44,665 nt of DNA from Candidatus Pacearchaeota archaeon. GTDB taxonomy: Archaea; Nanobdellota; Nanobdellia; Pacearchaeales; GW2011-AR1. How positions within the stretch are numbered: the first letter of the stretch is position 1; each line of letters starts with the position of its first letter. Location: contig VGKP01000006.1 of NCBI GenBank assembly GCA_016866975.1, positions 1 through 44,665 of the forward strand, in the 5' to 3' direction. Positions 20,179 through 43,279 of the stretch are shown one piece after another. The notes under the pieces are model-generated. The model was given only the letters and a program-made list of their open reading frames with translations, was not told where the DNA came from and ran no database searches. Both the position numbers and the translations under genes were made by a program.

Positions 20179-21741
20179 ATGGGAAGACAAGATGAATTGC
20201 TTAAAGAGCGCTTGAGGAAAATAGATGAGCTTAGGAAGAAAGGGATAAACCCTTATCCATATAGTTATGACAAGAAAGATTCTTCAGCCCAGCTTCAGAA
20301 AGAGCATGAGAAATTAAAGCCAGAACAGCATTCAAAATCGACAGCAAAAATTGCTGGCCGCCTCATGTCTTTTCGCGATATGGGTAAAATAGCATTCGGC
20401 TCAATTCAGGATGAAACGGGAAAAATACAAATAGTATTGCAAGAGCCAGATACCTCTGAGAAGGTCTCAGAATTTTTTAAGAAATATATTGATCTTGGAG
20501 ACTTTGTAGGAATAGAGGGCACAGTTTTCAGGACAAAGCGGGGAGAACTTTCAATATTAGCAAAGAAAGCAGACATTCTCTCAAAATCTCTTCAAGCTCT
20601 TCCAGACAAATGGCACGGGTTGGAAGACAAAGAAGAAAGATACAGAAAGCGTCATCTGGATTTGATAATGTCTCCCGAAGTAAAGCAAGTTTTAGACAAA
20701 AGGGAAAAAATACTTGACGCAATCCGCGAATTCTTGAAAAGCAAAGGCTTCAATGAAGTAGACACACCTTATCTCCAGGCAGTATACGGCGGCGCAGCAG
20801 CAAGGCCTTTCAAAACACATCTGAACGCTTTAGACATCGATTTATATCTGGCTATTTCTCCAGAGCTTTATCTAAAAAGGCTTATTATCGGTGGCTACGA
20901 AAAAGTTTTTACAATTGCCCACAATTTCAGAAATGAAGGAATTGATCGCTGGCACAATCCAGAGTTTACAATGATGGAAATATATCAAGCCTATGCGGAT
21001 TACAACGACATGATGGAACTTATGGAAGACTTATATGTTTGCGCAGCAAAGAAAGTAAATGGCTCTACAAAAATTAATTTCAGAGGCAAGGATATAGATT
21101 TCAAGAAGCCTTGGGCGAGAATGACTATGGCTGAAGCGATCAAAAAATATGCAAAAATAGATGTAGAAAAAATGTCTGCTAAAGAGTTATTCGATGTAAT
21201 AGAAGAGCACAAAGTCGAGAAAAAAGGAAATACATGGGGCTGGGCAGTGCAATCTCTTTTTGAGCATTTTTGCGAGTCTCATTTAGAACAGCCGACATTC
21301 ATCATAGACCATCCGCTTGAGACAACTCCTCTTTGCAAGCTTCACAGAAATGACAAGCTCTGCCGCCTGATAGAAAGATTTGAGCCATTTTGCATGGGCG
21401 CAGAACTTGGGAATGCATATTCAGAGCTAAACGATCCAGTCATGCAGAAGAAACTTCTAGAAGAACAGCAGGCAATGCTCAAGAAAGGAAATGAAGAAGC
21501 AAATCCATATGATGAAGATTTTGTAAATGCGCTTGAAGTAGGCATGCCTCCGACGGGCGGAATTGGCATAGGTATAGACAGAATGGTTATGCTTCTTACA
21601 GGGCAGGATTCAATCCGCGATGTTTTGTTATTTCCCTTTATGCGCCCCGAAACAAAGCCAGAATCTAAGCTTGAAGTAAAAGCAGGGCAGAAAAAAGAGA
21701 CAAGGGGAGGTAAAAATGACCGATCTGATAATAAAAAGTAA
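20179..21741 (+). CDS. lysS: Lysyl-tRNA synthetase, class II
   Basis: OB-fold anticodon domain, GGAAARPFKTH, FRNEG, HNPEFT, ELGNAYSEL, GMPPTGGIGIGIDR. Confidence 0.97.
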   Translation: MGRQDELLKERLRKIDELRKKGINPYPYSYDKKDSSAQLQKEHEKLKPEQHSKSTAKIAGRLMSFRDMGKIAFGSIQDETGKIQIVLQEPDTSEKVSEFFKKYIDLGDFVGIEGTVFRTKRGELSILAKKADILSKSLQALPDKWHGLEDKEERYRKRHLDLIMSPEVKQVLDKREKILDAIREFLKSKGFNEVDTPYLQAVYGGAAARPFKTHLNALDIDLYLAISPELYLKRLIIGGYEKVFTIAHNFRNEGIDRWHNPEFTMMEIYQAYADYNDMMELMEDLYVCAAKKVNGSTKINFRGKDIDFKKPWARMTMAEAIKKYAKIDVEKMSAKELFDVIEEHKVEKKGNTWGWAVQSLFEHFCESHLEQPTFIIDHPLETTPLCKLHRNDKLCRLIERFEPFCMGAELGNAYSELNDPVMQKKLLEEQQAMLKKGNEEANPYDEDFVNALEVGMPPTGGIGIGIDRMVMLLTGQDSIRDVLLFPFMRPETKPESKLEVKAGQKKETRGGKNDRSDNKK

Positions 21742-23855: not shown

Positions 23856-26240
23856 TTAGGGCTTCACAGGATTAGGTATGGATATAACTTCGCCTTTTAT
23901 CTGTGAAGCACTCACTACTAGGTTGCAGGCATTAGGGTCAGGTTCATTATCATACGCATCGCTGCATTTTATATGATAGACTGCATTGTCCTTCCATTCA
24001 GCAAGATGGCTCTCAAGCTCTTCTATAGGGGAATGTATCATCTCAATCCCTTCCACAAACCTGTAGTTGCAAGAGGTAAGTGAATATACACATTGAGCAT
24101 CTTCATCAGTGACTACTTTCAATGCCTCTGTATTGAATCTATATGCCCTCGTTATCTTTGGAGGCTGCTTATCTACAATTATGGTAAATGCCGCGCTAGT
24201 CTTTGCAAGGTTGCCTCCTGCATCTATACATCTTATGGAATAATTATAATTGCCACTTATTAATCCAAGGGTCTGCTTGTGGGATATTCCTCCAGTCTCA
24301 AACATTTTTATGTACTCTTTTTGCCCAGAGGGAGCAAATGAACACACAGATTTCCCATCTTCAGCACCGTTAGTGGTAGTTACAACAATATCTACTTTTA
24401 CAGTATCTGTGCTTCCCGAGATTGTTCCATTAGGACCGACAGAGAATATATCCAAGGGCCGACTACCTTTTAACACAAGCTCTTTGCTTGCGACATTTAC
24501 ATTGCCTGCAATATCCTTGCACCTGAAGAAGAAAGAGTTGTCTTCTCTGTCCTTTACTCCAGTCAAATTGCCTTTACATATATATTGTAGGTCAGCATTT
24601 ATCTCAATGCTCTCATTAGAACACTGCATGACATTTTCCATTGTCTCATAGTTTTTGCTTTGAATGCTCCACTTGCACTGCGCAGGTTCATTGATATATG
24701 ATTCTATAGGCACAATATCTTTCCTGTATTGCACAAAACTTCCAGATGGTATAGAAAACTCCTCAATCAAAGGAGGGGTTGTATCTGGCCCCTTATCCAC
24801 GCAGAAACTAACTGCATAAGCATCAGCATTATAGTTTCCATTGGCATCCTGGCATCTGATATACATACTTATTGTCCCATCATTCCTCAACGTAGGTGAT
24901 GCAACATCTTTAGAATTATCCGGTGCAGGCAATCTCATTTTCTGTGTGTGATTGTATGCAAAATAATTACTTTCCCCAACATAATATTGCATGTCTGAGA
25001 AAGGAGTGGTAGCATTGAAGTCTATCTTGCACTGCGCAGGCTCATCAGTAGTTATTCCAAATTTTAATGGAGTATAAGCAGGCAAGCAACCTGAATTTGA
25101 GGTTATTTTAATTCCTATTGCAGGAGGACGAACACTTGTATCAGTTACATACTTTAGTTCTCCAGGAGACAATACATCTTTCCAAGGGCTTATCATAGGG
25201 CTTCTTGCGTCATTAACACTCTTATACACGCATTGTGGCACAGTAGAATCTTTGTTTACAAGATCACATGCCTGTCCCAATGACTTACATCTATATTCGG
25301 TGCACGGTCGGCTAGGATCTTTATTGCAATCTTCACATTTCTTCCCCCCAAGTGGAGGTTCCCATGGTAAGCACTCGAACCTTACCAGTTTTTTCTCTTC
25401 TTTTTTATACATCAAGAAAAATACTGCTGCCGCTATCCCTATTCCAGTCACAAACCCAAATTGAGTGGCGGAAAGTCCGATTTTATTTGCAAATGAACCA
25501 ACACCCCATGAAGTATATTTTGCCTCTGTTGCTAGCCCATAAAGCAACCTCCCTCCTATTATCCCCGCCATCGCGGCGGCAGATAAAGAATTTGTAAGTT
25601 CTTTATCCAGTCCTGCAATCTCTCCCACAAGCTTTATGATGCCTACTGCCGTTGTTGCCCACAATACACCAGTCAATAAATGAGCACCCATCCCGGAAAA
25701 TTCGATATCAGTAAATGGTATCTTTTGTTTATGTGTTCCAGATAGAGTCCCTCCCTGTGATGCTACGCTTTGCTGAATATCTTTGAATTCTTTAGTATTG
25801 ATAGTGATTTCTTCTCCATTTGCAATTATCTTACCACCTTTTCCATCAGCTCCAGGAGGAATTATACTTTGGACATCAGAATAAGGTTTACCTCTAATTT
25901 CAACGCTTGCACCTTTCACGATTATTCCTTTTTGTCTAAGATAAAGAGAATTTGTTCCAGTAGGATTAGGCGTCTTAGTACCTCCCCAAAATTTTTTCTG
26001 TTCAGGCAGTTTTATCTTTGAACTTAAATCTGGAGAGACTGGTGGGGCTGGAAGAGGTGATGGATCAGGGAGATCTATCCCTGTACTTAGACCTGGAGAT
26101 CCCGATGGAGAGTGAGATGTTGCATAAACATTCTGAGCCTGTCCTATCACAAAAGATATTGCAAAAACTGCACAAATTAAGATAAAAACTTGTCCAGAAA
26201 CCACAGATAAGACTCCCTTCCTTCCACTTCTTTTTTGCAT
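23856..26240 (-). CDS. 794-aa surface protein: Pro-rich linker, Gly/Ala-rich hydrophobic region, Cys/Ig-like C-domain
   Basis: C-domain matches the 1273-aa protein (CxPWxPPLGG, PAQCK, FCVxxGPDTTPP, DxxPPxITRxY); own TATA at 26269, 29 nt before the ATG. Confidence 0.85.
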   Translation of the reverse strand: MQKRSGRKGVLSVVSGQVFILICAVFAISFVIGQAQNVYATSHSPSGSPGLSTGIDLPDPSPLPAPPVSPDLSSKIKLPEQKKFWGGTKTPNPTGTNSLYLRQKGIIVKGASVEIRGKPYSDVQSIIPPGADGKGGKIIANGEEITINTKEFKDIQQSVASQGGTLSGTHKQKIPFTDIEFSGMGAHLLTGVLWATTAVGIIKLVGEIAGLDKELTNSLSAAAMAGIIGGRLLYGLATEAKYTSWGVGSFANKIGLSATQFGFVTGIGIAAAVFFLMYKKEEKKLVRFECLPWEPPLGGKKCEDCNKDPSRPCTEYRCKSLGQACDLVNKDSTVPQCVYKSVNDARSPMISPWKDVLSPGELKYVTDTSVRPPAIGIKITSNSGCLPAYTPLKFGITTDEPAQCKIDFNATTPFSDMQYYVGESNYFAYNHTQKMRLPAPDNSKDVASPTLRNDGTISMYIRCQDANGNYNADAYAVSFCVDKGPDTTPPLIEEFSIPSGSFVQYRKDIVPIESYINEPAQCKWSIQSKNYETMENVMQCSNESIEINADLQYICKGNLTGVKDREDNSFFFRCKDIAGNVNVASKELVLKGSRPLDIFSVGPNGTISGSTDTVKVDIVVTTTNGAEDGKSVCSFAPSGQKEYIKMFETGGISHKQTLGLISGNYNYSIRCIDAGGNLAKTSAAFTIIVDKQPPKITRAYRFNTEALKVVTDEDAQCVYSLTSCNYRFVEGIEMIHSPIEELESHLAEWKDNAVYHIKCSDAYDNEPDPNACNLVVSASQIKGEVISIPNPVKP

Positions 26241-26281
26241 ATCGTAGCGATGCCCTCCTAGTTTATAAATCTTCTCAGATT

Positions 26282-27091
26282 CTACTTGCTTTCATAGACT
26301 TCAAAAGGCGCTTCACCAAGAAACAATACTCTCGGTTCTGGTTTGGGGGGCGGAGAATAAGTTACCGCGCTCTTTCCAAAACTGAACCATGGTTTTGGTT
26401 GATTTATAATGAGAGTCGCCCTATTATCTTTTTCTTTACCATATACTACCAAGGAATATTTTCCTGAGAACTGCAATTTTTTAACTTCTACTTCTATGTC
26501 ATCTTCTGGCTCTGAAGATTCTATCATAGTATCTAATTTAATATTACCCTCTGCATCCAATATTTTCACAAAAAACTTCTGGAAACTTTTATCTTCAAAA
26601 GAATAACCTATTCGAAACGGCTTACCTTGAGGGAATCTTGCATTATTTGCTGGCCTCAAGCCAACATATTCTTCAGGATAATCTGCACCATCTCCATTTT
26701 TATCGATAGTATGCTCATAATATAAAATAGCAACTCTTCCTACATCAGGAAGCCTTAATACTTTCATGAATGGATCAGACGCATATACTTCTGCAGAGGT
26801 ATTAGCAGATACATTAGAGTCATTTGAAGATTGTGGCTGATTAATCATCTGCTGAGTCTGCTTTCCCTGTTGAAGTACCGCTCCAGATTGAAGAAGTGCC
26901 GAAGCCAATCCAAGTCCTGCAGCCGCCTGGGGAGAAAGGCTACTGTTATACAATGCATTTCCGCCCGCAATACCTCCCAATGCAAAAGTCCCTTCAGGGG
27001 TAGCACATCCAGAGGACAATAATACTGCTAGTGCTCCAGAAGAAACCATAATCGAGGACTTTTCTCTAAATCTCTCAATCAAATCCATCAT
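26282..27091 (-). CDS. Putative lipoprotein of unknown function
   Basis: LAVLLSSGC lipobox-like motif; unrelated to its neighbours; own TATA-like element near 27116. Confidence 0.65.
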   Translation of the reverse strand: MMDLIERFREKSSIMVSSGALAVLLSSGCATPEGTFALGGIAGGNALYNSSLSPQAAAGLGLASALLQSGAVLQQGKQTQQMINQPQSSNDSNVSANTSAEVYASDPFMKVLRLPDVGRVAILYYEHTIDKNGDGADYPEEYVGLRPANNARFPQGKPFRIGYSFEDKSFQKFFVKILDAEGNIKLDTMIESSEPEDDIEVEVKKLQFSGKYSLVVYGKEKDNRATLIINQPKPWFSFGKSAVTYSPPPKPEPRVLFLGEAPFEVYESK

Positions 27092-27126
27092 CTTTGAAGA
27101 ATATCTGAATATAAAAGCATTTCTAT

Positions 27127-28602
27127 TTATCGAGTTATTTTAAATCCTTCTTTGAATCCCTTATCTCCAACCCAATTTACCTTGGGACCACAATCACCTA
27201 ATGCCGTGCAGACCTCAGATCTCTGTCTCTGCCAAGTCTCTGCCAGGCATTCACATCCGCTCTTGCAAGTCTTTCCACCAAATACTCCTTTCTCGTAAGT
27301 TACTTGGCAGACTGCATTTGCTTGTGAGCATACATTCAACGCATCACTTCCTTCCCAGAATTTCAGTCCAGGAGAATTTCTAGGCACACACGCCCCATCC
27401 GTGGAATTTCCAAATGCTATTCCTGGCTTCCAGATGCAGTCTCTTATATCTATATTTTGACAATCTTGTTTCTCAGTTTGAGTTATACAGTCTTGCCATC
27501 TGTTGACCTTACACGCTGCTTGTAGAAAAGGTCCTGTAGACGTCTGAATACTGTCTTCTATGCATTCTTGTTGCCTAAAATCATCACATTGCTCAACAAT
27601 CTCTTCTCCATTAATGCACAAGTGTTTCGTGAACCTGCTCCCTACAGAATTACTTCCTTGATTTATTGTGCCTTTGTCAGATGAAATGCACCAAGATTCA
27701 CCATGTTTTCTGGGACCTTTAGATGTAGAAGCACAGTTCAAGTCAGCACATACATATGATAATCCGGTGTTCTTTTTAGATTGCCTGCAATAGCTTCCGG
27801 ATAGATAGTTGCAGTTTCCACAGCTTACCGAATTGCTGTTTGGTGATCCTGGATTACAAGACTCTGACTTTGTCTTCACATTTGTCCAATATTCAGGATT
27901 GTTTGCTTTTGAAGAGTCATAAATGTTTGCAGGATTTCCACAGGTGTCAAGGAAGTATACTTCATCTTTTCCAGGGGCGCAAGTAGTCTTTGTCGATTGG
28001 CCGCAATTTGTTCCAAGAGTAGGCGCCGAGCATAATAAATTCTTGAAGAATTGTCCTTTTACAGATGACCCATTCACTCCCGCCCCACATTCCTCTCTAG
28101 TTGTGAATTTACATGTTCTTGTGAACTCTAAATCATATACACATGCGCCTCTATCTTGGTTCTGCACCGAAAGTATGCATTGCTCCTCACTGGCTATGTT
28201 TTTCTTGAAGTTTGTTTGCAAGCCATATAATGAAGAGAGCCTTTTGCACCTCACTAAAGAAACAAATGCTGCTTGGTCTCCTAGAACACAACATCCAGCA
28301 TTGCACTGAGGCGGAGCAGACTCATTCCATACTCCTCCTGCAACATTGCACGCAAGTTTAGGAGTATTATCAGTACAAATACCTTCTTTTCCATCATAAC
28401 ATGTACCTAGCCTGCAGAAACTTGTCGAGTCGCATGCTGTAGGAGCTTGTGCAGATCCGGCAGCGCATTCACTTGCAGCCACATTTTGGCAATAGAGATT
28501 ATTTTTTGTCTTTTCACAGCACACAGTAGGCTCTACTGCGCTTACAATTCCAATTAGACCAAAGCAGACTGCTATTGCCAATATCATCATTATCTTATTC
28601 AT
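27127..28602 (-). CDS. Secreted Cys-rich protein (about 44 Cys), homologous to the N-half of the 1273-aa protein
   Basis: Sec signal; shared GTCxD, GCCxL, CGNxxNIYD, CGNC, ExWC and LGDCG motifs; ATGA-coupled to the upstream gene. Confidence 0.85.
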   Translation of the reverse strand: MNKIMMILAIAVCFGLIGIVSAVEPTVCCEKTKNNLYCQNVAASECAAGSAQAPTACDSTSFCRLGTCYDGKEGICTDNTPKLACNVAGGVWNESAPPQCNAGCCVLGDQAAFVSLVRCKRLSSLYGLQTNFKKNIASEEQCILSVQNQDRGACVYDLEFTRTCKFTTREECGAGVNGSSVKGQFFKNLLCSAPTLGTNCGQSTKTTCAPGKDEVYFLDTCGNPANIYDSSKANNPEYWTNVKTKSESCNPGSPNSNSVSCGNCNYLSGSYCRQSKKNTGLSYVCADLNCASTSKGPRKHGESWCISSDKGTINQGSNSVGSRFTKHLCINGEEIVEQCDDFRQQECIEDSIQTSTGPFLQAACKVNRWQDCITQTEKQDCQNIDIRDCIWKPGIAFGNSTDGACVPRNSPGLKFWEGSDALNVCSQANAVCQVTYEKGVFGGKTCKSGCECLAETWQRQRSEVCTALGDCGPKVNWVGDKGFKEGFKITR

Positions 28603-29396
28603 ATTCCATATCCCGGAGGCCATACCAAGCTTCTTGAAGCAAACTGGAACCTCTCATTAGACGTCAAACTTGATACTCTATATATCTTTATACCGTTAGG
28701 AATTTTAATCTTTTCTATCTTAAGGTTCGGATAGGCATTTATGAAATCAGTTGTTTCAGAATCTCCAAATGTCGATTCATAATTGACTATGCTCTCCCCT
28801 ATGATTAATAGTTCATAAGCTTCGCTCTTTATAGAAAGGTCAAATCTGTCGAAGCTCTGCGTTCCTTCTTTTCTGATAGTCAATGGAGACACAATAGCTA
28901 CCGCTATCTTTCCAGGAACAATATCTATAGATGTTTTTGAACTAGAACTGGATACTTCATATCCTCTTTTTCTATATTCATTGATCAGGGAATCTAGACA
29001 AGACTTTGATTTCTCAGAGGTCCTTTCAGCAAGCTCTCTCTCCACTTGGGATTTTATCATTGGCTTCTGGACAGTACATGTCTTGTAGTTCTCAGAAGTA
29101 TAGCATAGGTAAGATATCTTATCTCCCTCATATTCAACACTGCTTTCAGGTATGATAGCACCTCCCTGTTTTAACTGCGTGGATAATGTAGAAGTTATAT
29201 GGGGCTCAATACAGGAGGTGAGATAGCTATGGGGTGACAACGCTTCCCCTCCTATTATAGAAAGCGACCCTCTGTTCAACATAAGCAATATTACTGCTAT
29301 GACAACAAGGATTGCGATGATGATAATTATCGCCATTTGCCCTCTTTTCTGCATCACCAAAAAAGTACAGTCTTGTTTATAAGTGTTCCGTTTCAT
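28599..29396 (-). CDS. Pilin-like protein with class III signal (alternative start 29354)
   Basis: KRG/QMAIIIIIAILVVIA; paralogue of 33211-33996 (SC.E, QGG...P, YLC, C..Q.P). Confidence 0.8.
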   Translation of the reverse strand: MKRNTYKQDCTFLVMQKRGQMAIIIIIAILVVIAVILLMLNRGSLSIIGGEALSPHSYLTSCIEPHITSTLSTQLKQGGAIIPESSVEYEGDKISYLCYTSENYKTCTVQKPMIKSQVERELAERTSEKSKSCLDSLINEYRKRGYEVSSSSSKTSIDIVPGKIAVAIVSPLTIRKEGTQSFDRFDLSIKSEAYELLIIGESIVNYESTFGDSETTDFINAYPNLKIEKIKIPNGIKIYRVSSLTSNERFQFASRSLVWPPGYGI

Positions 29397-32300
29397 ATGA
29401 CTCCTTCTTGTATGACTGCGCTACAGCTTCCAGCTACCTTTCCAAACTTGTTTTTGCATTTTATGTAAGATACTTTGCCTCGAGGCATAGGCAAGGTATG
29501 CTCAAGGGAGCTTCCAGACATTTCAGTGCCATTCTTGTAGTCAAAGAAGCATGCTTCAGCATCATTTGTGCTAAGACTGCAACTTCCTTTTTTCTCAGTT
29601 ATCACATGAAGCACACCGTTCTTATTATATATTCTCGTTACTGCAGGAGGTGTAGCATCTATCTTTATTTCAAATTCAGTGCTGCCTTCAGCTATATTCC
29701 CTATCGGATCTTCACACACTATAGGCAAAGTAATCTTTCCAGAGTATAGGTAAGTTAGTAACTTGCTATGCTTGGAAGAAAAAGTCTCAGTAAACGCGTC
29801 CTTAGTGCCTTTATAATTAAGGAAACATTGTGCGCTTCCATCCAGCCCCCCAGAAGTCATAGCTTCGAGTTTTACCGTAGCAGGTTCACTTTCTGCGTCT
29901 ATTACAATTCCAGATACAGGCTTTATGCTATCTATTTTCAAAGGCGCAGAGACTTTATTCAGATTAAACTTGTAGCTCTCAGTCATATCATTTCTCTTCA
30001 CAGCACTGTCTCCTGTATGCCAAGGTTGATCTCTGCATCTCACAAAATATTGGTTCTCCATATTTGGGGTAGGTAATGTGGCGTTGCATACAAATCCATT
30101 TATGCTATAGTCTTCAATCTCGTTTGCACAATCGAATTCATTTTTCATGCCGTCATAATTTCCATCAGTAGTATCCCATTTGCAATCGGCAGGCTCACTC
30201 GTGAAAATCAAGACTTTCTTATCCGTTGCACCATATTTTATCTTTTCCAGCGAAGGTTCTCTTCCAACGACTTTCGGAGGAGTGGTGTCTGGTCCTTGTT
30301 TTACACAGAAGTCTACTGTAAATGCTCTTGAGTTCTTATTTCCATTTTTGTCTTGGCAGAAAAGATGCAGTTGAATGTCTATTTTTGCTGTTGGATCAAA
30401 ATCAGGTAATCCAAGGCTCTCAAGATTAGGTATCGATATAGGTAAAGTATGGTTTCTCACAAACAAGTTTGTACCAACATCTTCCATATTTTCCCATGTA
30501 TCAGCCCTGTCATTACTCATCTTACATTGTGCAACTTCATTAGTATCAAACTTTAGATTAATTATATTATATGTTTCCGCAATACATTCTTCGTTTCCTT
30601 TTATATGCACTCCATAATCTCTCAATTCATATGTATAAGGAGAAGGAGCTATGCTTCTTGCATTTATTACTGGAGAAGCTACATCTTCTGGAGAGACATC
30701 TACACACTCCCCATATCCCTTTTCACTTGTTCCTTCATTAATGAGTTCGCAGGTCTGTCCTAAAGACTCGCACGCTGACCTTGTACAAGGCAGCCCATCG
30801 CTTCCACACTTTGCACAGTTCTTTCCTCCAAGAGGCGGCTGCCATGGCTTGCATGTGAATGTCACGTCTTTTGTTTTTGCTTTGCCAATTCCAAGAATCT
30901 TAAGAATGACAATGATAATTATCACTACTACGATTATTGCAACTCCAATGGCGGCAACACTCGCTGCAGGACCTAGTCCAGCACCTATGCCTGCTCCTCC
31001 TGCTCCAAATGTGCCACCCGTACCTATTGTTCCACCCAATGCTCCAAATCCAGCTATCCCTCCTCCTAATGTTCCCAATGCCAATAGACCATATGTTGCT
31101 GCTGGAGGCAATCCTCTTCCTATTCCAGTCCAGCTTATTAGGAACGATGTCAATGCAAATCCAATTGCAGCACCTGCAAGTGCGCCGCCATAAGGTGCTA
31201 GTGTCGTACCAGATGGAGCAGCGATAATTCCTTCTCTAATCACCTCTCCTGCAGCATTATAAATTGGTACAGTGCCAATTTGAACAAACGTGGATGTCGA
31301 ACCTGCAAGAGGACCCAAGGCAGCCGCACCAATCGAGGTGTGTGCAATCATGGGCAGCAATGTTCCTACTGCTCCAGCTATCATGCTTCCGGATTTCAAT
31401 GTTCCTGCTGTTTCATCTTCAGGGACTTCAGCATTTCCAATATCTTCTGGATATCCAATCGACTCAAAATATCCTTTCAAGGTAGGAGACAGGGCAAATT
31501 GTCCAGGATAATTTCTTTCAGATGCATAACGGGATATCCCTGAGAGATAACTGTTCCCAAGCTCAGGAGCATTCACAACTTTGTAGCTTTTTGACATGTC
31601 ACCTAAGTAATTTACTTGTGCTCCACAATCTCCCAAGCTCATGCACAAGTCATTTAATTGTTGGGTAAATTCCTCCTCGACACAACCTTCATTTACTTTC
31701 TTACTTTTAAACAATCCTTTTACTTTGACATATTTGCATGAAATAGTGCCCATCGAGCAACGGTTTTCATTCACTGAATCATCTCTGCTGAACCCAGGCT
31801 TGTATTTTGGGACACACACATCAAACTTGAATTTACTATCTACATCGACATGCTTTACAAAACAGAAAACATTCTTCTCACAATTTCCAATATCTTCCTC
31901 AGTCTTTAAAGGATTCATCTTAAGACAAAGAGAAGATGGATTTGGGAGACACTGAGCTGATGAGAAAGTTCCTCCATTCGAAGTCTGGACTTCACTGGCT
32001 GTACATATAGAATTCCTATTGCTACCGCATACCTCCGATACTATCTCTCCATTTTGGCAAGATTGTAAGAAATGAGAACTGCCTGGAGTGTCAATAGATC
32101 TCTGTCCATCGAAGCCTATTGCTCCTTGATATCTGCACCATCTCTCTCCATTCACTCTCTTTTTGCCGTTTTCATCTATACAGGAAGCATCTCTGCATAC
32201 ATATTCCATGTTAGAGTCTACAAGTGTTTGTGTGCTAGTCTTTTTTCCGCATACGCTTCCAAGTATAGGGGCACAATTTCCACATGTCTTTTGCTTATCT

Positions 32301-33214
32301 TTGAAACTGGGATCAGTCGGAGAAGGCAATTGGCAGCTTTGCGAAGCACTTACTATCTTGCCTTCCTGCCTTAATTTGGCTTTGTTGTTGAAATCATATA
32401 TATTTTCTTTATTTCCACAACTATCAAACCAATAAATAGCATCTTCTCCATTCTCAGTCTTGTCACACTTAGTTGTCTCCTGAGGCAGGCATCTAGTGTT
32501 TAAGGAAGGATTTGAACAAAGCACTTTGGAGTAGAATTTGCCGCCTTTTGTTTTGCATGTCTGTTCATTTGATACAATGCAATCATTGAATGGTTTTTTT
32601 TCGAAAAGGCAGGCTCCTTCAACATTACTTGTCCTTAAGACTAAGCAAGCAGGTTGGGTAGTGACCTCTCTCCTGAAATCTTTCTTAATCCCCGCAGCCT
32701 GTGATATTAAGGTACATTCTTGTTCATTGATAAACTCAGGATTTCCGTTTAACATGCAACATCCTTTCATACATTGAGGGATTGTCCCTTGCACATTATC
32801 ATACCATTGCCCTGATTTTTCATCACATGTCTGCTTCGCAGTCCTTATGCTACAGCTACCGTGCCTTGTATCTACACAGGTTCCAAATGAGCATGCATGG
32901 ATTCCACTAGTCATAGTAGAAATACAGGACACTGCACATTTACTTGGGCATTCCGCAGTCAAGAATACTGAACATATGTCTCCAGTCTTGGTTTTAGGAC
33001 AGTAAGAAGATGATGTGTCGGGTTCTGCAGAGACCAATGGGATGTCAGGCATCAACCACTTCCAGATTAGGCTAATCATCTCACCTAATGTGTTGTCTTT
33101 GCTCGTAATAATTGCAGAATTGGATTCCATCCCACTTCTCAACAGGAAGGAAAAAGCAAATATACTTGATACAAGTAAGAATATTTGGAAAAAGACTTTA
33201 ATGTGTTTTATCAT
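29393..33214 (-). CDS. 1273-aa giant Cys-rich surface protein with central glycine-zipper hydrophobic region
   Basis: N-terminal hydrophobic anchor, Cys-rich N-half, Gly/Ala-rich segment at about 30885-31386, C-half with DTTPP-bounded repeats. Confidence 0.88.
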   Translation of the reverse strand: MIKHIKVFFQIFLLVSSIFAFSFLLRSGMESNSAIITSKDNTLGEMISLIWKWLMPDIPLVSAEPDTSSSYCPKTKTGDICSVFLTAECPSKCAVSCISTMTSGIHACSFGTCVDTRHGSCSIRTAKQTCDEKSGQWYDNVQGTIPQCMKGCCMLNGNPEFINEQECTLISQAAGIKKDFRREVTTQPACLVLRTSNVEGACLFEKKPFNDCIVSNEQTCKTKGGKFYSKVLCSNPSLNTRCLPQETTKCDKTENGEDAIYWFDSCGNKENIYDFNNKAKLRQEGKIVSASQSCQLPSPTDPSFKDKQKTCGNCAPILGSVCGKKTSTQTLVDSNMEYVCRDASCIDENGKKRVNGERWCRYQGAIGFDGQRSIDTPGSSHFLQSCQNGEIVSEVCGSNRNSICTASEVQTSNGGTFSSAQCLPNPSSLCLKMNPLKTEEDIGNCEKNVFCFVKHVDVDSKFKFDVCVPKYKPGFSRDDSVNENRCSMGTISCKYVKVKGLFKSKKVNEGCVEEEFTQQLNDLCMSLGDCGAQVNYLGDMSKSYKVVNAPELGNSYLSGISRYASERNYPGQFALSPTLKGYFESIGYPEDIGNAEVPEDETAGTLKSGSMIAGAVGTLLPMIAHTSIGAAALGPLAGSTSTFVQIGTVPIYNAAGEVIREGIIAAPSGTTLAPYGGALAGAAIGFALTSFLISWTGIGRGLPPAATYGLLALGTLGGGIAGFGALGGTIGTGGTFGAGGAGIGAGLGPAASVAAIGVAIIVVVIIIIVILKILGIGKAKTKDVTFTCKPWQPPLGGKNCAKCGSDGLPCTRSACESLGQTCELINEGTSEKGYGECVDVSPEDVASPVINARSIAPSPYTYELRDYGVHIKGNEECIAETYNIINLKFDTNEVAQCKMSNDRADTWENMEDVGTNLFVRNHTLPISIPNLESLGLPDFDPTAKIDIQLHLFCQDKNGNKNSRAFTVDFCVKQGPDTTPPKVVGREPSLEKIKYGATDKKVLIFTSEPADCKWDTTDGNYDGMKNEFDCANEIEDYSINGFVCNATLPTPNMENQYFVRCRDQPWHTGDSAVKRNDMTESYKFNLNKVSAPLKIDSIKPVSGIVIDAESEPATVKLEAMTSGGLDGSAQCFLNYKGTKDAFTETFSSKHSKLLTYLYSGKITLPIVCEDPIGNIAEGSTEFEIKIDATPPAVTRIYNKNGVLHVITEKKGSCSLSTNDAEACFFDYKNGTEMSGSSLEHTLPMPRGKVSYIKCKNKFGKVAGSCSAVIQEGVI

Positions 33215-33996
33215 TCTCCCTCCTCACCTAAAGTATATGGGACAACACAACTCCTTACGGCGATCCATAACTCTTTCTTACTTTTAACATCTTGTATCTG
33301 GTATATAACGCTTTCATCTGACATAACTTGTTTCTTTATCATATATTCAGGAGATAAGATGGAATAACCAAGAGTATCAAAATGACAATATCTGGCCTCT
33401 TGGTTTGCTATTTCTATTGCCACACTACCAAGATTAAAAAGAGGATGAGAAACCTGGACTGGGAAATCGAGGACAGTCAGACTTTTTTCACCTTTTTTCA
33501 TTATCATCTCTCGCGTCAGATTTACATATATCTTTCCTTTTCCCCAGTATAAATTAACCTGTTGCGGTCCAAGTTCTACATCAGTGGACCTTCTCTCATA
33601 CTCTATCTCTAATCCTCTGAAACATCCATCAACTTTATTCTTTATATTATCTTCAATAGTAGCTCTCATCTCTTCAAGGAATAAAGGGTGTTGTTGAATA
33701 CAAGGTACATACGACCCAGGGTTCTTGCAGAGGTATTCTACTTTGACATTCTTATATAATATATAATTTGAAGGATTTACAAAACCTCCCTGAGGCATTA
33801 TTTTCTGAGTTATCTCTTCTAATCCTTCCTCCACACAACTCTCTATGGCAGAACCTGGATGCGATATTGATTGGTCGTCTACTTTTATTTTTCTTCCAGT
33901 ATATGCAAAGACTAATAAAGCTGTTACAAAAAGTACAGCAAGGATTATCCACAGAGTCATCTGGCCCTTTTTCTTCATTTTATCTCTTTTTATCAT
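33211..33996 (-). CDS. Pilin-like protein with class III signal
   Basis: KKKG/QMTLWIILAVLFV; GGAGG before the ATG at 33996; ATGA-coupled to the giant gene. Confidence 0.82.
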   Translation of the reverse strand: MIKRDKMKKKGQMTLWIILAVLFVTALLVFAYTGRKIKVDDQSISHPGSAIESCVEEGLEEITQKIMPQGGFVNPSNYILYKNVKVEYLCKNPGSYVPCIQQHPLFLEEMRATIEDNIKNKVDGCFRGLEIEYERRSTDVELGPQQVNLYWGKGKIYVNLTREMIMKKGEKSLTVLDFPVQVSHPLFNLGSVAIEIANQEARYCHFDTLGYSILSPEYMIKKQVMSDESVIYQIQDVKSKKELWIAVRSCVVPYTLGEEGE

Positions 33997-34048: not shown

Positions 34049-34166
34049 GTCGGGAACCGATGAAAACCACACCTTTCAAGGTGTGGTGGTTCCCGAGCAT
34101 CTCCAAAAACGAGCGCCTGCAACAAACCTCGGCTTAAAAGCCGAGGTGGCGCATCGTTTTTGTGAT
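34049..34166 (+). mobile_element. 118-nt structured mini-element, copy 2
   Basis: 3' of TTTAT; ends in TGAT; shares AAAAACGAGCGCCTGCAACAAAC and TGGCGCATCGTTTTT with copy 1; stems covary. Confidence 0.85.
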
Positions 34167-34275
34167 AATAATTTTGCTGCCTGGTTTCAAGGATAAAGTA
34201 TCCACTATTGCCTTAGGTATCTTTATCCTTTCACCTTTTTGTACTTTCCCGCCTCGAAATATTGTCTCAGCCATT

Positions 34276-38358: not shown

Positions 38359-38631
38359 ATGCAGAAAAAAGAAGATTATATAGGGAGCATTTCTGAATAC
38401 ATAAAAAGAAATCTGAAGAAAGGCTATACAAAGGAATCTTTGAAATGGGCGCTGGTTAAACAAGGACACTCGCGTTTAGAGGTAGACAAGGCGATGGCCA
38501 AAGTAGATTCTGAATTGGCCAACATGGCCCCCATACTCAAGACAAAACCCGAAATAACTTTGGAAGTTATAGAACCCCAAGGTGCAATAGTTAAAAAAAA
38601 ATCCCTATGGGCTAAATTACGGGGTAAGTGA
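38359..38631 (+). CDS. Small helical hypothetical protein
   Basis: YIKRNLKKGYTKESLKWAL; TATA at 38330, 29 nt before the ATG. Confidence 0.7.
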   Translation: MQKKEDYIGSISEYIKRNLKKGYTKESLKWALVKQGHSRLEVDKAMAKVDSELANMAPILKTKPEITLEVIEPQGAIVKKKSLWAKLRGK

Positions 38632-38680
38632 TTAGGGTAATGTTTTAATATTTGCATTTCTATGATCAAGAGTAAAAAAG

Positions 38681-40855
38681 ATGAAGAAAGTCCAAATAAC
38701 GCTGGTAGACATAGATGATCAAGACTCTTTCAAAGTAGAACAGAGTCTTAATCAGCTGTCAGGGGTAAGGAATGTAGCTGTCAATATGGCCACAAAGACG
38801 GTAACTGCAGACTGTGAAGATTACATAGCAGAAGATCAGTTGATATCTACTATCCGTCAGACTGGATTTCAAGTTTCAGATATATTTTTCGAGAATTCTT
38901 CATCTGAAACAGTTATTGATGACGAAAATTATTTCAAGGTAAAACAGGAAGGAAAGGATACAGATCTTCTTGATAGTGTAGTCTGGGCATGGGTTTTCGC
39001 AATACCTCTAATAGGAATTCTGATCTCTCAGCTTATCTTCCAGGAGGGGGTAAGCTTCACGATGCAGGCAATAGTCTTACTTATAAGCCTGCCTATTGTC
39101 TTGGTCATGGGATGGAAACCAATCAGCTCTGGTGCACAGAGCTTTCATTCAATGAGCTTTGACTCAAATTCGCTTATTTTTTTAAGTGCATCAGTCGGAA
39201 TCTTCACAGGGGTATTGAGCCTATTTATAAGTATAACAAATTATTCAGGAATCGCCGGAGTGATGATGGCTATATTTTTGACAGGGAAGTATTTAGAGGA
39301 GAAAGTCAGGAATGAAGTTGGCAGAGATATAAGACGTTTCAATCGTTTGATACCAGATACGGCTATAATAATCATCCAAGGGAAGGAATTTAGAGTGCCT
39401 CTCTCAGAGATTCAGGTAGGAGATATCATGGTTCTTCTACCAGGAGATCACATAGCCGCAGACGGATTGATTACAAAGGGATCTGGCAAGGTTGATGAAA
39501 GTCTTCTAACTTCTGAAGACCATCTTATCGATAAGGCGCAGGGAGATAGTATTCTTGCCGGAAGCGTTATAAATTCAGGTCGGTTTCTCATAGAAGTCAC
39601 AAAGATTGGGAAGGATACATATCTTTCAAGAGCACTAGGTGTTGTAGAAGGTACTCAGAACTCAAAGAGATCTATTCAAAGAATGCTCAATTCTGTTGCT
39701 AAATACATGGTGCCTTCAATGATTGTACTCTCAGTATTAACCTTTGTTTCCTGGTTGATATTTACGCAAAATTTTAACGCTTCTCTAAATTATGCCTTAG
39801 CAGTACTTATCATAACCTGTCCTTCATCATTAGGTCTTGCTGTGCCAGCAGTTCTTTTTGTTGGGTCAGGCATGGCGGCAAGAAAAGGAATACTTATAAG
39901 AAATGGGGAATCATTCCAGATAATTAAAGAAGCGAAGACTATAATATTTGATATCCCTGGGACTCTGACAAAAGGTACACCAGATATTTCCTATATAACC
40001 AGCGTTATTAAAGAGAAAAATCTTTTAGAGATTGCAGCAAGTATGATGAGGCAATATGATACTGAACTGGCAAATTCCTTGCTTAGGCGTGCAGGATTGA
40101 AAAGATTCAAACAGGTTGAAAATACTATCTCAACTCCCGGGAAGGGCATTGAGGGGAATATAGACGGGAAGAAAATAGTCGCGGGGAATAAATCTTTTTT
40201 TGCAGAAAAGTCTATTTCAATTAAGGGCATGGGCAAATACATCCAAGAATATGAGGACGGGGGCAAGAAAGTTTTACTTATTTCCATTAGCGGCAAGGTA
40301 GTAGGGGCTATTGCTGTATCAGATGAGCTCAAGGAAGATTCGCAAAGTACAGTTATCAGGCTTCAGAAAATGAATTATAAAGTCATGATACTAGTCTCAG
40401 ACAATGAAAGAGCAGGCAAGGCCCTTGCAAAAAGGCTAGGCAATCCTGAAGTGCTTATAGCAAGGACTCCAGAAGAAATATCAAAAAAAATAAGCCATCT
40501 GCAAGAATTTGGAAGGGTTGCATTCATATCTGGTCCGAATAGAAATGGGAGGGCAATTAAACAAAGTAATGTAGGTATAGTGATTGGAAAAGAAGACGAT
40601 TTGGGCAATGGCACAGAAGATATATTGATAACAAAGACTCCTTCTGCAAGTATAATTGAGATTGCCCGGCTATCTAAAAAAGTTCATGACAAAGTTCAAC
40701 AGAACCTCTATTGGGCTATAGGTTACAATGTTCTTGCAGTTCCTCTTGCAGTCTTAGGCTATATGCACCCGATTTTTGCAGAAATGGCAATGTTAGCTTC
40801 AACCATAAGTATTTTTGCTAATGCAAATATTTTAAGGGCAGAAAGATTTTACTGA
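38681..40855 (+). CDS. P1B (CopA-like) ATPase homologue with degenerate catalytic motifs
   Basis: Full HMA-TM-A-P-N layout, but DKTGT is DIPGT, TGE is TSE, CPC is CPS, TGDN is VSDN, GDGIND is SGPNRN, and the HMA domain has no CxxC. Confidence 0.88.
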   Translation: MKKVQITLVDIDDQDSFKVEQSLNQLSGVRNVAVNMATKTVTADCEDYIAEDQLISTIRQTGFQVSDIFFENSSSETVIDDENYFKVKQEGKDTDLLDSVVWAWVFAIPLIGILISQLIFQEGVSFTMQAIVLLISLPIVLVMGWKPISSGAQSFHSMSFDSNSLIFLSASVGIFTGVLSLFISITNYSGIAGVMMAIFLTGKYLEEKVRNEVGRDIRRFNRLIPDTAIIIIQGKEFRVPLSEIQVGDIMVLLPGDHIAADGLITKGSGKVDESLLTSEDHLIDKAQGDSILAGSVINSGRFLIEVTKIGKDTYLSRALGVVEGTQNSKRSIQRMLNSVAKYMVPSMIVLSVLTFVSWLIFTQNFNASLNYALAVLIITCPSSLGLAVPAVLFVGSGMAARKGILIRNGESFQIIKEAKTIIFDIPGTLTKGTPDISYITSVIKEKNLLEIAASMMRQYDTELANSLLRRAGLKRFKQVENTISTPGKGIEGNIDGKKIVAGNKSFFAEKSISIKGMGKYIQEYEDGGKKVLLISISGKVVGAIAVSDELKEDSQSTVIRLQKMNYKVMILVSDNERAGKALAKRLGNPEVLIARTPEEISKKISHLQEFGRVAFISGPNRNGRAIKQSNVGIVIGKEDDLGNGTEDILITKTPSASIIEIARLSKKVHDKVQQNLYWAIGYNVLAVPLAVLGYMHPIFAEMAMLASTISIFANANILRAERFY

Positions 40856-40856
40856 A

Positions 40857-42068
40857 TTACTCATACCTCAATGCCGTCACAGTGTTTAACTTGCTTGCTC
40901 TCCATGCTGGGAAGACTCCAGAGACTGCTCCAATTAGAAAAGCAAAAGTCAGGCAGCCAATTATAAGTTCTATAGGTGCCGCAGCCTGTAGAAGGGTTGT
41001 ATTGAGTTTCTGTGTCGCTACATACTCTATACTCTTGGCAATTCCATATCCTAACAACATTCCAAATATTCCCCCTATAAATCCTAGCAGACCAGATTCT
41101 ATCAGGAAGATAAATAGTATATCGGAATTCTTAGCTCCAACAGCCTTCATGGTCCCAATCTCTTTTGTCCTCTCAAGTACAGAGGTATACATCGTTGTAG
41201 CAATTCCTATACCTCCAACTATAATAGATATTGCTGCGACTCCAAGAAGGAAAGACGTCAATATTCCCAATATGGTGTCAAATGTCGCAAGAAATTCCTC
41301 AGGGGTCAAAACTGTGAAATCTTGCGTCTTTTCAGTCTGACTTCTTGACGACCTAAGTTTTTTTTCTACTCCAGAGGCTACCTCTCTTAATTGAGAAGAA
41401 CTCTCAGCTTGGACTATTATCTGGTCTATTCTATCATCTGAATTGAATATTTCCTGGAAGTCTTCGAGAGGTATTAGGAGTATTCTATCATCCACTGGAT
41501 TACCTACTGGCCTCATGCTTGCCTTTACTTTGAAAGATACACCGTTTATTATTATACTGTCTCCTTCATGGACTTCTTCTGTAAAGACCAATGCTCTTGA
41601 GAAATGCGACCCCAATCCTACAAATCTTCTATCGCCTTCTCTCAACCATCTTCCTTCTTCTATTTTATATGCTCCACTTTCGATGAATACATCTCCTCTG
41701 TTTGTAGGCACGCCAATTATCTGCAAGTATCTTGTCTCTCCACCAAATTCTATTTTTGCATTTCCCGCAGCGACATATGATAAATCCTTCACTCCAGGCA
41801 CTTTATCAATGACTTTTATGTCTTCTAGAGTTAGTAGGTTTGACCCTCCACTTCCAGGGCCAGCAATTTGTGCTCTGGAAAAAATGAAGAATTTATCAGT
41901 GCCAAGTGCCCTAAACTGCTCAGTCACAGCAATCTGCAATCCCATCGACACACTGATAAGCACAAAGATAGTGGCGATTGCAATTATTATCCCGAGCATT
42001 GTCAATGAAGATCTTAGTCTGCGTTTCCATAATGTCTTTAATGCAATCTTAAAAAAAGATGACTTCAT
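40857..42068 (-). CDS. MacB/FtsX-family ABC permease
   Basis: RSSLTMLGIIIA, SVLERTKEIGTMKAVGA, PAWRASKL. Confidence 0.92.
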   Translation of the reverse strand: MKSSFFKIALKTLWKRRLRSSLTMLGIIIAIATIFVLISVSMGLQIAVTEQFRALGTDKFFIFSRAQIAGPGSGGSNLLTLEDIKVIDKVPGVKDLSYVAAGNAKIEFGGETRYLQIIGVPTNRGDVFIESGAYKIEEGRWLREGDRRFVGLGSHFSRALVFTEEVHEGDSIIINGVSFKVKASMRPVGNPVDDRILLIPLEDFQEIFNSDDRIDQIIVQAESSSQLREVASGVEKKLRSSRSQTEKTQDFTVLTPEEFLATFDTILGILTSFLLGVAAISIIVGGIGIATTMYTSVLERTKEIGTMKAVGAKNSDILFIFLIESGLLGFIGGIFGMLLGYGIAKSIEYVATQKLNTTLLQAAAPIELIIGCLTFAFLIGAVSGVFPAWRASKLNTVTALRYE

Positions 42069-43279
42069 GATCTCAAAGCCTCCACAGGGTGCATTCTAGA
42101 AGCTTTCCATGCAGGTATGCTGCCTGCAATTATACCTAATAGGAATGTGAATAATACTGCTCCTCCAATTAATGGCAATGAGAAAGAAGCTTGCAGCAGG
42201 TTAGTGCCCAGTGCTGAGTTTGCTCCAGCAGCGGCTGCATATGCAAACCCAATTCCCATTACTACTCCTATCGATCCCCCTATAAATCCTAACATACCAG
42301 ATTCTATTAAGAAGATAAATAATATATCGGAATTCTTAGCTCCAACAGCCTTCATGGTCCCAATCTCTTTCTTTCTCTCTAGAACTGAGGTGAACATGGT
42401 ATTGCTTACTCCAATAGATCCTATCAACAAAGCAATTGCGGCAATGCCTGCAACAACTATATTTATCACGGTAAGTATAGTATTTACTGAAGAAATGACT
42501 CCAGCAGGAGTTTGTATTGAAAAGTCTTCCTCGCCCTTTTTTAAATTTCTATCCTTCCTTAGTTTATTTTCAATTGACTCTTTTATTTCATCACTTCTTT
42601 CTATGTCATCAATACGTATTATAAGTATATCCATCTCATCACTCAATTCAAGTATATTCCTCATGTCTTCTTCAGGCATAAGCATTGCATTGTTAAATTG
42701 CATGTTTCCTGAAGGGGCAAGGATTCCTGCAACACTGAATTCTCTTCCTTGAATGGTCAATTTTGTTCCTGCATGTATATCTTTCCCGAATTGTCTTTCC
42801 TTGGCAAGTTCACTACCTAATAAAATCTCGCCTTTGTCAGAAGATTTCAATAGTTTGCCTTCCTTAGTCTTTATCTGGAAACTAGTATAAAAGAAATCAA
42901 TCCCTTCCTGTCTGTCAGGCAGAGAACCTGTAAAGATGAATTTTCTTTGACGATTGTAGTCTACACTTGTCACTCTTATCAATCTAGGAATAGTAGACTT
43001 GACACCACTTATCCCATCCACTACATTTTGATCATGTTCAGTCAATTTTCTTACAGCTGTGCTTCCTGGAGGGCCAAATCCTGCTTCAGCATTTGTAAGT
43101 ATCAATCTATCTGCGGCTATTCCAGAAAATTGTCCAGTAATTGCATTTTGCAGACCTTGACCTAAGGAAAGCAGTGCAATAACTGCAGTTATCCCTATTA
43201 TTATTCCGAGCAAAGTTAACCAAGATCTTACGCCTCTATGCCTTAGATTGCTCATTGCGAGCTTGAGCGTTTCCACCAT
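42065..43279 (-). CDS. MacB/FtsX-family ABC permease (tandem paralogue)
   Basis: RSWLTLLGIIIG, SVLERKKEIGTMKAVGA, PAWKASRM. Confidence 0.92.
   Translation of the reverse strand: MVETLKLAMSNLRHRGVRSWLTLLGIIIGITAVIALLSLGQGLQNAITGQFSGIAADRLILTNAEAGFGPPGSTAVRKLTEHDQNVVDGISGVKSTIPRLIRVTSVDYNRQRKFIFTGSLPDRQEGIDFFYTSFQIKTKEGKLLKSSDKGEILLGSELAKERQFGKDIHAGTKLTIQGREFSVAGILAPSGNMQFNNAMLMPEEDMRNILELSDEMDILIIRIDDIERSDEIKESIENKLRKDRNLKKGEEDFSIQTPAGVISSVNTILTVINIVVAGIAAIALLIGSIGVSNTMFTSVLERKKEIGTMKAVGAKNSDILFIFLIESGMLGFIGGSIGVVMGIGFAYAAAAGANSALGTNLLQASFSLPLIGGAVLFTFLLGIIAGSIPAWKASRMHPVEALRS

Follow-up and report, generated by a model that had tools for sequence, protein, structure and literature searches.

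Two paralogous modules of pilin-like, cysteine-rich and Ig-like proteins form a candidate adhesion-type surface complex in a Pacearchaeota archaeon

The window, i.e. the whole 44,665-nt stretch of DNA analysed here, carries six ORFs on the reverse strand between positions 23856 and 33996. They encode, in the order of transcription, the pilin-like protein PilA, a giant protein, a second pilin-like protein (PilB), a Cys-rich protein, a lipoprotein and a 794-aa protein. Together they account for about 1.3% of the 0.8-Mb genome of this tiny and probably host-dependent archaeon. The features of the locus, including the domains of the giant, are as follows.

34134..34274, reverse strand: small 46-aa ORF upstream of the operon, AbrB/MazE-like (PF04014, E 5e-4, below the cut-off)
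33211..33996, reverse strand: PilA, 261 aa; class III signal KKKGQ and hydrophobic helix, alpha+beta head
29393..33214, reverse strand: copy-1 giant, 1273 aa; Cys-rich N-domain, membrane region, Cys knot and Ig-like domains
Giant aa 4-27, reverse strand: N-terminal helix
31580..33037, reverse strand: Cys-rich N-domain of the giant (aa ~60-545)
30890..31417, reverse strand: Gly/Ala-rich membrane region of the giant (aa ~600-775)
29396..30862, reverse strand: Cys knot of the giant, then four or five Ig-like domains (aa ~785-1273)
28599..29396, reverse strand: PilB, 265 aa, PilA paralogue; KRGQ signal, cognate partner of the split module
27127..28602, reverse strand: N-only Cys-rich protein, 491 aa; Sec-type signal peptide and Cys-rich N-domain, without membrane anchor
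26282..27091, reverse strand: lipoprotein, 269 aa; SSGC lipobox
23856..26240, reverse strand: C-only protein, 794 aa; N-terminal helix, Pro-rich exported linker, membrane region, Cys knot and Ig-like array

Three junctions (PilA/giant, giant/PilB and PilB/Cys-rich) are 4-nt overlaps. The ORF of the N-only protein can be read from 28623 (498 aa); the ATG at 28602 (491 aa) gives an ATGA overlap with the PilB gene, and the protein Atlas record starts there too. The gene set, gene order and ATGA coupling given in a preliminary description of this DNA stand, but the small DNA-binding gene ahead of the operon had been missed. The 3' end of this gene enters a mini-element (~34049-34166), and its slot is occupied in relatives by a small wHTH or RHH gene. 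The 269-aa gene had moreover been regarded as unrelated to its neighbours, which is not so: a lipoprotein is kept at this position across the family. Lipobox-bearing ORFs lie between N-only and C-only genes in the window and at loci L006, L030 to L033 and L036, with sequence similarity detectable between the window's lipoprotein and that of L006 only.

The Cys-rich and 794-aa proteins correspond to the two halves of the giant. Residues 58-539 of the giant align with residues 24-487 of the Cys-rich protein (30% identity, E 1e-53), and residues 671-1257 with residues 158-763 of the 794-aa protein (31% identity, E 2e-61). The latter is not the bare C-half that had been described, since it retains a giant-type N-terminal helix (second alignment), and the exported linker that follows is specific to it. 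An alignment of 89 full-length homologues has about 60 invariant columns, nearly all of them Cys, against a mean column identity of 29%, as expected from the earlier remark that Cys positions are conserved while spacers diverge. The head of the giant holds 44 Cys in about 480 aa. A 7-Cys knot comes before the Ig-like array, and conserved Cys pairs are found in every domain of this array. Three N-glycosylation sequons are found in the 1273 aa of the giant.

None of the six operon proteins matched Pfam or NCBIfam above the curated cut-offs, enzyme families included, and profile searches of PDB sequences with alignments A1 and A2 returned 0 matches. No published description of the cassette was found. 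The preliminary description, in which no enzyme motifs were seen and the type could not be assigned to a named family, is in line with these searches. At the level of structure, the AF2 model of the giant (residues 60-1259, pLDDT 82.9) was compared with the PDB by Foldseek and gave tandem Ig/FN3-like arrays (E 5e-11 to 1e-8, ~360-590 alignment columns). Ig/FN3 arrays were again obtained from BFVD, which holds predicted viral protein structures, and VIA also supports arrays. A Big_13 (PF19077) match in the 794-aa protein (aa 622-690, 22.4 bits) lies below the 27-bit cut-off; among relatives, Big_13 was found in 16/34 at E<=1e-3 (best E 7e-8) and LysM in 2/34. From the modelled arrays and from Big_13 and LysM in relatives, these parts look extracellular and adhesion-like. 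Tandem beta-sandwiches, a C-x-D-x-x-G-N type motif and D-T-T-P-P linkers are shared with bacterial Big_13/HYR-like adhesin repeats and with GhpA, the grappling-hook protein of Aureispira, fragments of which were matched by Foldseek at about E 1e-8. The array of the module differs from these in having four or five domains only, conserved Cys pairs, the Cys knot before it and an N-terminal tether to the membrane.

Between its two ectodomains, the giant has a 165-aa Gly/Ala-rich hydrophobic stretch, in which small-xxx-small motifs are kept in the family consensus. Its topology by hydropathy is ambiguous, with three AF2 helices, K-rich residues after the last one, and 2-8 hydrophobic segments in homologues. 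All that is left of this membrane region in split-C proteins is an amphipathic helix and one or two clear transmembrane helices, and split-C relatives have an exported segment with Cys-rich, LysM or Thr/Pro linker inserts. The K-rich flank and the three AF2 helices prompted consideration of a cytoplasmic Ig array, which was rejected mainly on account of single-chain relatives. Twelve such proteins of 1084-1306 aa were found in families f5, f8, f48, f57, f59 and f112, which belong to the same class as the window. Each of them combines a [KR][GAS]Q signal, a Pil domain, the second half of the N-domain and the C-domain, and in all twelve the N-terminal helix is the only strongly hydrophobic segment, with none between N- and C-domains. 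Since the three parts are fused without an internal membrane segment, Pil, N and Ig parts are linked to one another and the Ig array would lie outside the cell.

The same proteins bear on a possible membrane-fusion or pore device, in which the Gly/Ala-rich region would act as a glycine zipper that inserts into the host membrane and opens a cytoplasmic bridge. DPANN archaea in culture are in close contact with host cells, and both the length of the hydrophobic stretch between two ectodomains and its conserved small-xxx-small motifs would suit such a role. However, the region is absent from 12/12 single-chain relatives that keep the Pil, N and C parts, so that the conserved function does not require it and its behaviour is that of an anchor. 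Its shrinkage in split-C proteins points in the same direction. No fusogen or fusexin was listed in the fold searches of whole models, although the result lists were filled by Ig arrays. Such a device is considered highly improbable.

PilA and PilB (24% identity, E 9e-19) bear the signals KKGQ and KRGQ, respectively. The elements of an archaeal class III signal, i.e. a charged N-terminus, [KR][GA], a small residue or Gln at +1 and about 20 hydrophobic residues, are all found in Pil; in 125 Pil sequences, position -2 is K/R in 92%, position -1 is G, A or S in 100% and position +1 is Q in 100%. The same genome encodes a Peptidase_A24 prepilin peptidase (contig C8, 17485-17823, 64.8 bits, above the cut-off) together with a T2SSE ATPase and two T2SSF platform proteins (contig C21), and its small bona fide pilins carry the same RGQ/KGQ motif. 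A complete type IV filament machinery is present elsewhere in this genome, as is a separate S-layer-type gene. EppA processing is reportedly linked to +1 Gln signals of the Epd type. Pil resembles the Epd-type pilins of Methanococcus maripaludis (Epd pilus, "system 1") in its positive N-terminus, [KR][GA], invariant Gln and hydrophobic helix of about 20 residues (PMC13705601, PMC4858521), and in being encoded in one genome with a prepilin peptidase and with small pilins that share this motif. Unlike these pilins, it has a 220-aa alpha+beta head without known fold, its gene lies beside giant partners and not beside ATPase or platform genes, and some lineages have it as a fusion with a 1000-aa ectodomain.

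In the AF2 model of PilA (pLDDT 93.5), the alpha+beta head is separated by a coil from the helix (aa 10-33), the two not being packed together as in pilins. Fold and family searches with this model gave no pilin-like or other recognisable fold for the head, and a Pfam search of nine 100-aa N-termini gave no pilin N-terminal family. A single Flp1_like match was seen among 34 relatives. A third Pil paralogue, 606 aa long and without Pfam domain, is encoded on contig C19.

These features could indicate that Pil, or in relatives the whole giant pilin-like chain, is part of a pilus built by the contig C21 machinery and carries the Cys-rich head at its tip, comparable to bacterial minor pilins with PilY1 or to GspK. 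The invariant +1 Q shared with the small pilins, the full set of ATPase, platform and peptidase genes and the pilin-type helix as sole hydrophobic segment of single-chain relatives are consistent with this, as are the large adhesin-like proteins predicted for archaeal type IV filament loci (PMC4858521, PMC13705601). On the other hand, the extra membrane helices of the giant and the C-only protein should prevent extraction into a fibre, the helix of PilA is set off from its head in the AF2 model, and the giant's own N-terminal helix lacks G/A at -1. Moreover, the module is not beside filament ATPase, platform or peptidase genes, and none of these was seen in the 24 related loci. A location at a filament tip is judged unlikely.

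The genetic coupling of small pilin-like proteins to a very large extracellular adhesin-like protein, partly with Ig folds, is shared with the bacterial sets PilVWX-PilY1 and GspK, and with large Ig-fold proteins of adhesin type that are predicted at archaeal type IV filament loci (arCOG05616, arCOG07037; PMC13705601). The module differs from all of these in that no PilY1 beta-propeller or DUF2341 was matched at the sequence level in Pfam or NCBIfam, the giant is anchored in the membrane by a helical hairpin, the 44-Cys head has no family, and the partners are coupled 1:1 and have been duplicated together. In Sulfolobus bindosome-type proteins, a class III signal likewise displays a large non-filament protein at the surface (PMC13705601). 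The module has neither solute-binding domains nor nearby Bas-type assembly genes, and its ectodomains are Cys-rich or Ig-like.

Gene pairing and order are conserved across relatives. Pil adjoins its partner in 24/24 loci, so that the pairing assumed in the preliminary description holds, and the trees of Pil and of the C-domain mirror each other. In the former, the genes ahead of copy-2 modules group in a single clade of 15 (SH-aLRT 100); in the latter, the C-domains of copy 2 are united in a clade of 13 (SH-aLRT 97). This adjacency and the mirrored trees imply that entire modules underwent an ancient duplication and have been maintained since. The paralogy of the two modules is thus old, and they are retained across the family; copy number ranges from 1 to 3 among the loci examined, and the smallest genomes have the split module only. 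Identity to the closest relative is 65-76% for the module and 49-81% for its flanking neighbours, so that its rate of evolution does not exceed theirs. Hypervariability was rejected, the divergence rate being like that of flanking housekeeping genes. Contigs from four lake-water runs (depths 1-6) were identical to the window, without variants. With a copy number of 1 to 3, the two specificity variants proposed earlier are not supported.

This conservation might be expected of a structural envelope component, such as an S-layer scaffold or anchor, which would serve cell integrity and not cell binding. Among the genomes sampled, the Pil domain was found in 369/401 from the phylum and the giant family in 26/27 from the window's own family; the operon keeps a stable position among core genes in relatives, and it diverges like its housekeeping neighbours. 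Archaeal S-layer proteins (S_layer_N/S_layer_C of Methanococcales, SlaA/SlaB of Sulfolobus) are also large, exported, membrane-tethered and beta-rich. Unlike them, the module is extremely Cys-rich and has few N-glycosylation sequons. No S_layer_N or S_layer_C domain was found in the six proteins, the S_layer_C matches lying on contigs C5 and C18, and an S-layer identity of the module was rejected. A general envelope role further has to account for the wide variation of the module, from 1 to 3 copies and from split to fused forms, and for the accessory LysM of some relatives, which points to a ligand that these archaea are not known to make themselves. Such a role appears rather improbable.

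Taken together, these features slightly favour the view that the operon encodes two paralogous copies of a modular cell-surface complex, membrane-anchored, pilin-linked and of adhesion type, that is specific to this DPANN class (Pacearchaeota/Woesearchaeota-type). Its parts would be Pil, a disulfide-rich head (the N-domain) and a stalk made of the Cys knot and four or five Ig-like domains (the C-domain). Pil would be cut by the prepilin peptidase of this genome, and its N-terminal helix would keep it in the membrane. In the window, module 1 would consist of two chains (PilA and the giant) and module 2 of four (PilB, the secreted N protein, the lipoprotein and the membrane-anchored C protein); in other families the whole module is a single giant pilin-like chain. 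Its forms would thus range from one to four chains depending on lineage, and relatives have the complex as three, two or one protein. The parts may assemble outside the cell with the geometry of the single-chain relatives, the Gly/Ala-rich hairpin presumably being only an anchor. The complex would then bind something outside the cell, which may be a host cell, another cell or a surface polymer; the role in host attachment put forward in the preliminary description is one such conjecture. Against an adhesion-type complex stand the lack of the fast divergence often expected of host-specificity adhesins, the distance from filament assembly and peptidase genes, the Pil head without recognisable fold and the ambiguous hydropathy of the giant.

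A broader reading is that Pacearchaeota/Woesearchaeota-type DPANN archaea have in this module, across the whole class, their main organ of contact, a pilin-anchored, disulfide-locked head and stalk that recognises a host or partner and whose 480-aa, 44-Cys head is a new fold. This is put forward tentatively and is rather doubtful. For the most part, the DPANN archaea of this class have not been cultured, and neither their hosts nor their attachment molecules are known. The module combines hallmarks of export and adhesion without bearing a family name, and it is a candidate for holding other cells or surfaces. The series of fusions and fissions, in which the same parts occur as one, two or four chains, offers a map of likely contacts between the parts. 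Soluble constructs for binding assays and structural studies can be taken from the same series, which could make host recognition in these archaea directly testable.

Six genes lie in the same direction on the minus strand between positions 23856 and 33996:

33211-33996 (-): PilA, pilin-like protein, 261 aa
29393-33214 (-): giant protein, 1273 aa
28599-29396 (-): PilB, pilin-like protein, 265 aa
27127-28602 (-): Cys-rich protein, 491 aa when started at ATG 28602 (the 498-aa ORF extends to 28623)
26282-27091 (-): gene between the Cys-rich and 794-aa genes, 269 aa
23856-26240 (-): C-only protein, 794 aa

Consecutive genes among the first four overlap by 4 nt; the remaining junctions are gaps of about 35-41 nt. 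The Cys-rich protein aligns with residues 58-539 of the giant protein at 30% identity (E 1e-53), and the 794-aa protein with residues 671-1257 at 31% (E 2e-61). PilB is a paralogue of PilA (E 9e-19). Among 89 full-length giant homologues, about 60 columns are invariant, almost all of them Cys, at a mean column identity of 29%. The gene run, paralogy and Cys conservation reported in the preliminary description are thus confirmed. An AbrB/MazE-like 46-aa ORF (34134-34274, minus strand) immediately precedes the operon and follows a TATA-like box; its last codons reach into a mini-element at 34049-34166. In relatives, this position is occupied by a small wHTH gene (L006, the closest relative locus) or an RHH gene (L008, L010), indicating that the regulator slot is conserved but its fold is not.

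Searches of the operon proteins against Pfam, NCBIfam and, with profiles, PDB sequences gave no match above curated cut-offs, which bears out the earlier view that they belong to no named family. The sole hint was Big_13, an Ig-like domain that the 794-aa protein matched below threshold. S_layer_C (PF05124) exceeded its Pfam cut-off at two places in the source genome (C5:13427-13720 and C18:11370-11510) and at none in the window; on C18, the match falls at the end of the contig, 3 kb away from the gene for a small RGQ pilin.

An exhaustive HMMER search for the pilin-like (Pil) family recovered 852 cluster representatives with lengths of about 255 aa. In an alignment of 125 members, K/R occupies position -2 in 92%, G/A/S position -1 in 100% and Gln position +1 in 100%, and a hydrophobic helix of about 20 residues follows. 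By its residue pattern, this is a +1-Gln class III signal of the archaeal type. Type IV filament parts encoded by the genome are an A24 prepilin peptidase (C8), a T2SSE ATPase (C21, with a second match on C4), two T2SSF platform proteins (C21) and clustered pilins of 100-200 aa that carry the RGQ/KGQ motif too. This machinery is unlinked to the Pil-giant operon and includes two type IV filament gene clusters away from the window:

C8:9781-18309: seven or more small proteins bearing class III-type N-termini, then the A24 peptidase
C21:1227-10379: an ATPase of 1050 aa and two platform proteins, with small pilins on either side

Since the peptidase and filament parts are present, processing of the Pil proteins by the genome's own peptidase is plausible. 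At C19:4667-6487 (minus strand; L060:268-2088), the genome encodes a third paralogue with a Pil domain, 606 aa long and bearing an RGQ signal. Its match to the Pil profile has E 8e-21 and its 350-aa extension has no Pfam match; similar proteins of 610-660 aa are found repeatedly in the window's family.

The AF2 model of giant residues 60-1259 (pLDDT 82.9) shows a Cys-rich N-domain of beta-hairpin and short helices, a poorly predicted linker, a Gly/Ala-rich region with three helices, and a C-domain in which a Cys knot precedes four or five beta-sandwiches. The N-terminal helix opens with E or Q in 79/89 giants, in the conserved context x-x-[EQ]-I-x-L-L...F-A-F-S-Y but without G/A at -1, and is therefore reminiscent of pilins rather than a canonical cleavage site. 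The same helix is present in the 794-aa protein. That protein had been described as matching the C-half of the giant; the shared helix makes it a giant whose N-domain has been lost rather than a mere C-terminal piece. In split-C relatives, the exported linker bears Cys-rich, LysM or Thr/Pro inserts. The 269-aa gene, previously considered unrelated, has counterparts: a lipobox ORF (SSGC, GGC or similar) occupies the slot between N-only and C-only genes in the window, L006, L030-L033 and L036, with similar N-termini and remaining sequence diverged past detection. It is treated here as a putative conserved lipoprotein member of the split module. At L034:7211-8234 (G397), the slot is instead filled by three ORFs, each about 110 aa long.

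Of 401 genomes sampled in the phylum, 369 gave a hit with the Pil profile, whereas the giant query reached far fewer (114). These tallies take in the unpublished genomes G243, G244, G322, G333 and G396, without which they become 364/396 and 114/396; the five enter the tallies only, and no sequence or locus from them was used. In families f5, f8, f48, f57, f59 and f112, the Pil domain forms the N-terminus of proteins of 1084-1306 aa. Twelve of these single-chain proteins (L046-L057) were compared. In all twelve, a [KR][GAS]Q signal and the Pil domain, which spans aa 1-250, are combined with the latter half of the N-domain (profile positions ~336-552) and with the C-domain. This combination indicates that Pil, N and C belong to a single unit. 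In the twelve chains, the N-terminal helix is the sole strongly hydrophobic segment. As none lies between the N- and C-domains, the Ig-like array would be on the exported Pil side, outside the cell; the fusion forms thereby settle its predicted topology, left open by hydropathy alone. The Gly/Ala-rich region might alternatively serve in fusion or as a pore, an idea weakened by the single chains, which lack the region and so mark it as dispensable and anchor-like.

The giant family was found in 26/27 genomes from the window's own family; in the other families it is all-or-none. A Pil gene adjoins the N- and C-domain genes in 24/24 loci, so the pairing is conserved. The order Pil-giant-Pil-N-lipoprotein-C is found in the window, L006 and L030-L035, Pil-N-C alone in L036-L038 (the smallest genomes), two or three fused modules in L026, L028, L029 and L034, and giant-Pil-giant in other families. 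In the C-domain tree, copy-1 and copy-2 clades separate within the window's family (SH-aLRT 97), with the same genomes represented in both; the copy-2 clade contains 11 C-only and 2 fused proteins. The Pil tree shows a parallel pattern, as Pil genes preceding copy-2 modules form one clade of 15 (support 100). The matching trees indicate that whole modules were duplicated before the family diversified and kept their cognate partners. Compared with L006, the module shows 65-76% identity and neighbouring genes 49-81%; on this comparison, the module is not hypervariable. Both the old duplication and the neighbour-like divergence argue against two specificity variants, as first proposed, being a recent or general feature. 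In G235, two giant genes with identical match scores (C5:30312-34067 and 38558-42313) lie 8 kb apart, which reflects either an assembly repeat or a tandem duplication of the module that happened very recently.

The source genome is archaeal, 0.81 Mb and 89% complete, and the window, its entire 44.7-kb contig C6, carries an archaeal rRNA operon. Window DNA occurs in lake-water metagenomes, and homologues of the operon genes are labelled Pacearchaeota, Nanoarchaeota or Nanobdellota by their sources. The 23S rRNA match (2670-6513) spans 3844 bases against 2987 in the model, pointing to insertions in the gene. The lysyl-tRNA synthetase (20179-21741, plus strand) is only 49% identical to that at L006:20916-22496; the adjacent HD, Hjc and CobA-like products show 78-81%.

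Archaeal type IV filament surveys (PMC4858521, PMC13705601) describe predicted large Ig-fold adhesin-like proteins, as well as class III-signal proteins, at many loci, and report that type IV filament systems are seldom detected in DPANN. An archaeal "dark matter" survey (PMC6393860) lists DPANN-specific secreted families. No description of the Pil-giant module was found in the passages and text searches of these three sources. Taken together, the operon encodes a real, conserved, unnamed and pilin-linked surface complex. Its predicted modularity is now supported by the fusion forms, and adhesion is the best-inferred candidate role.
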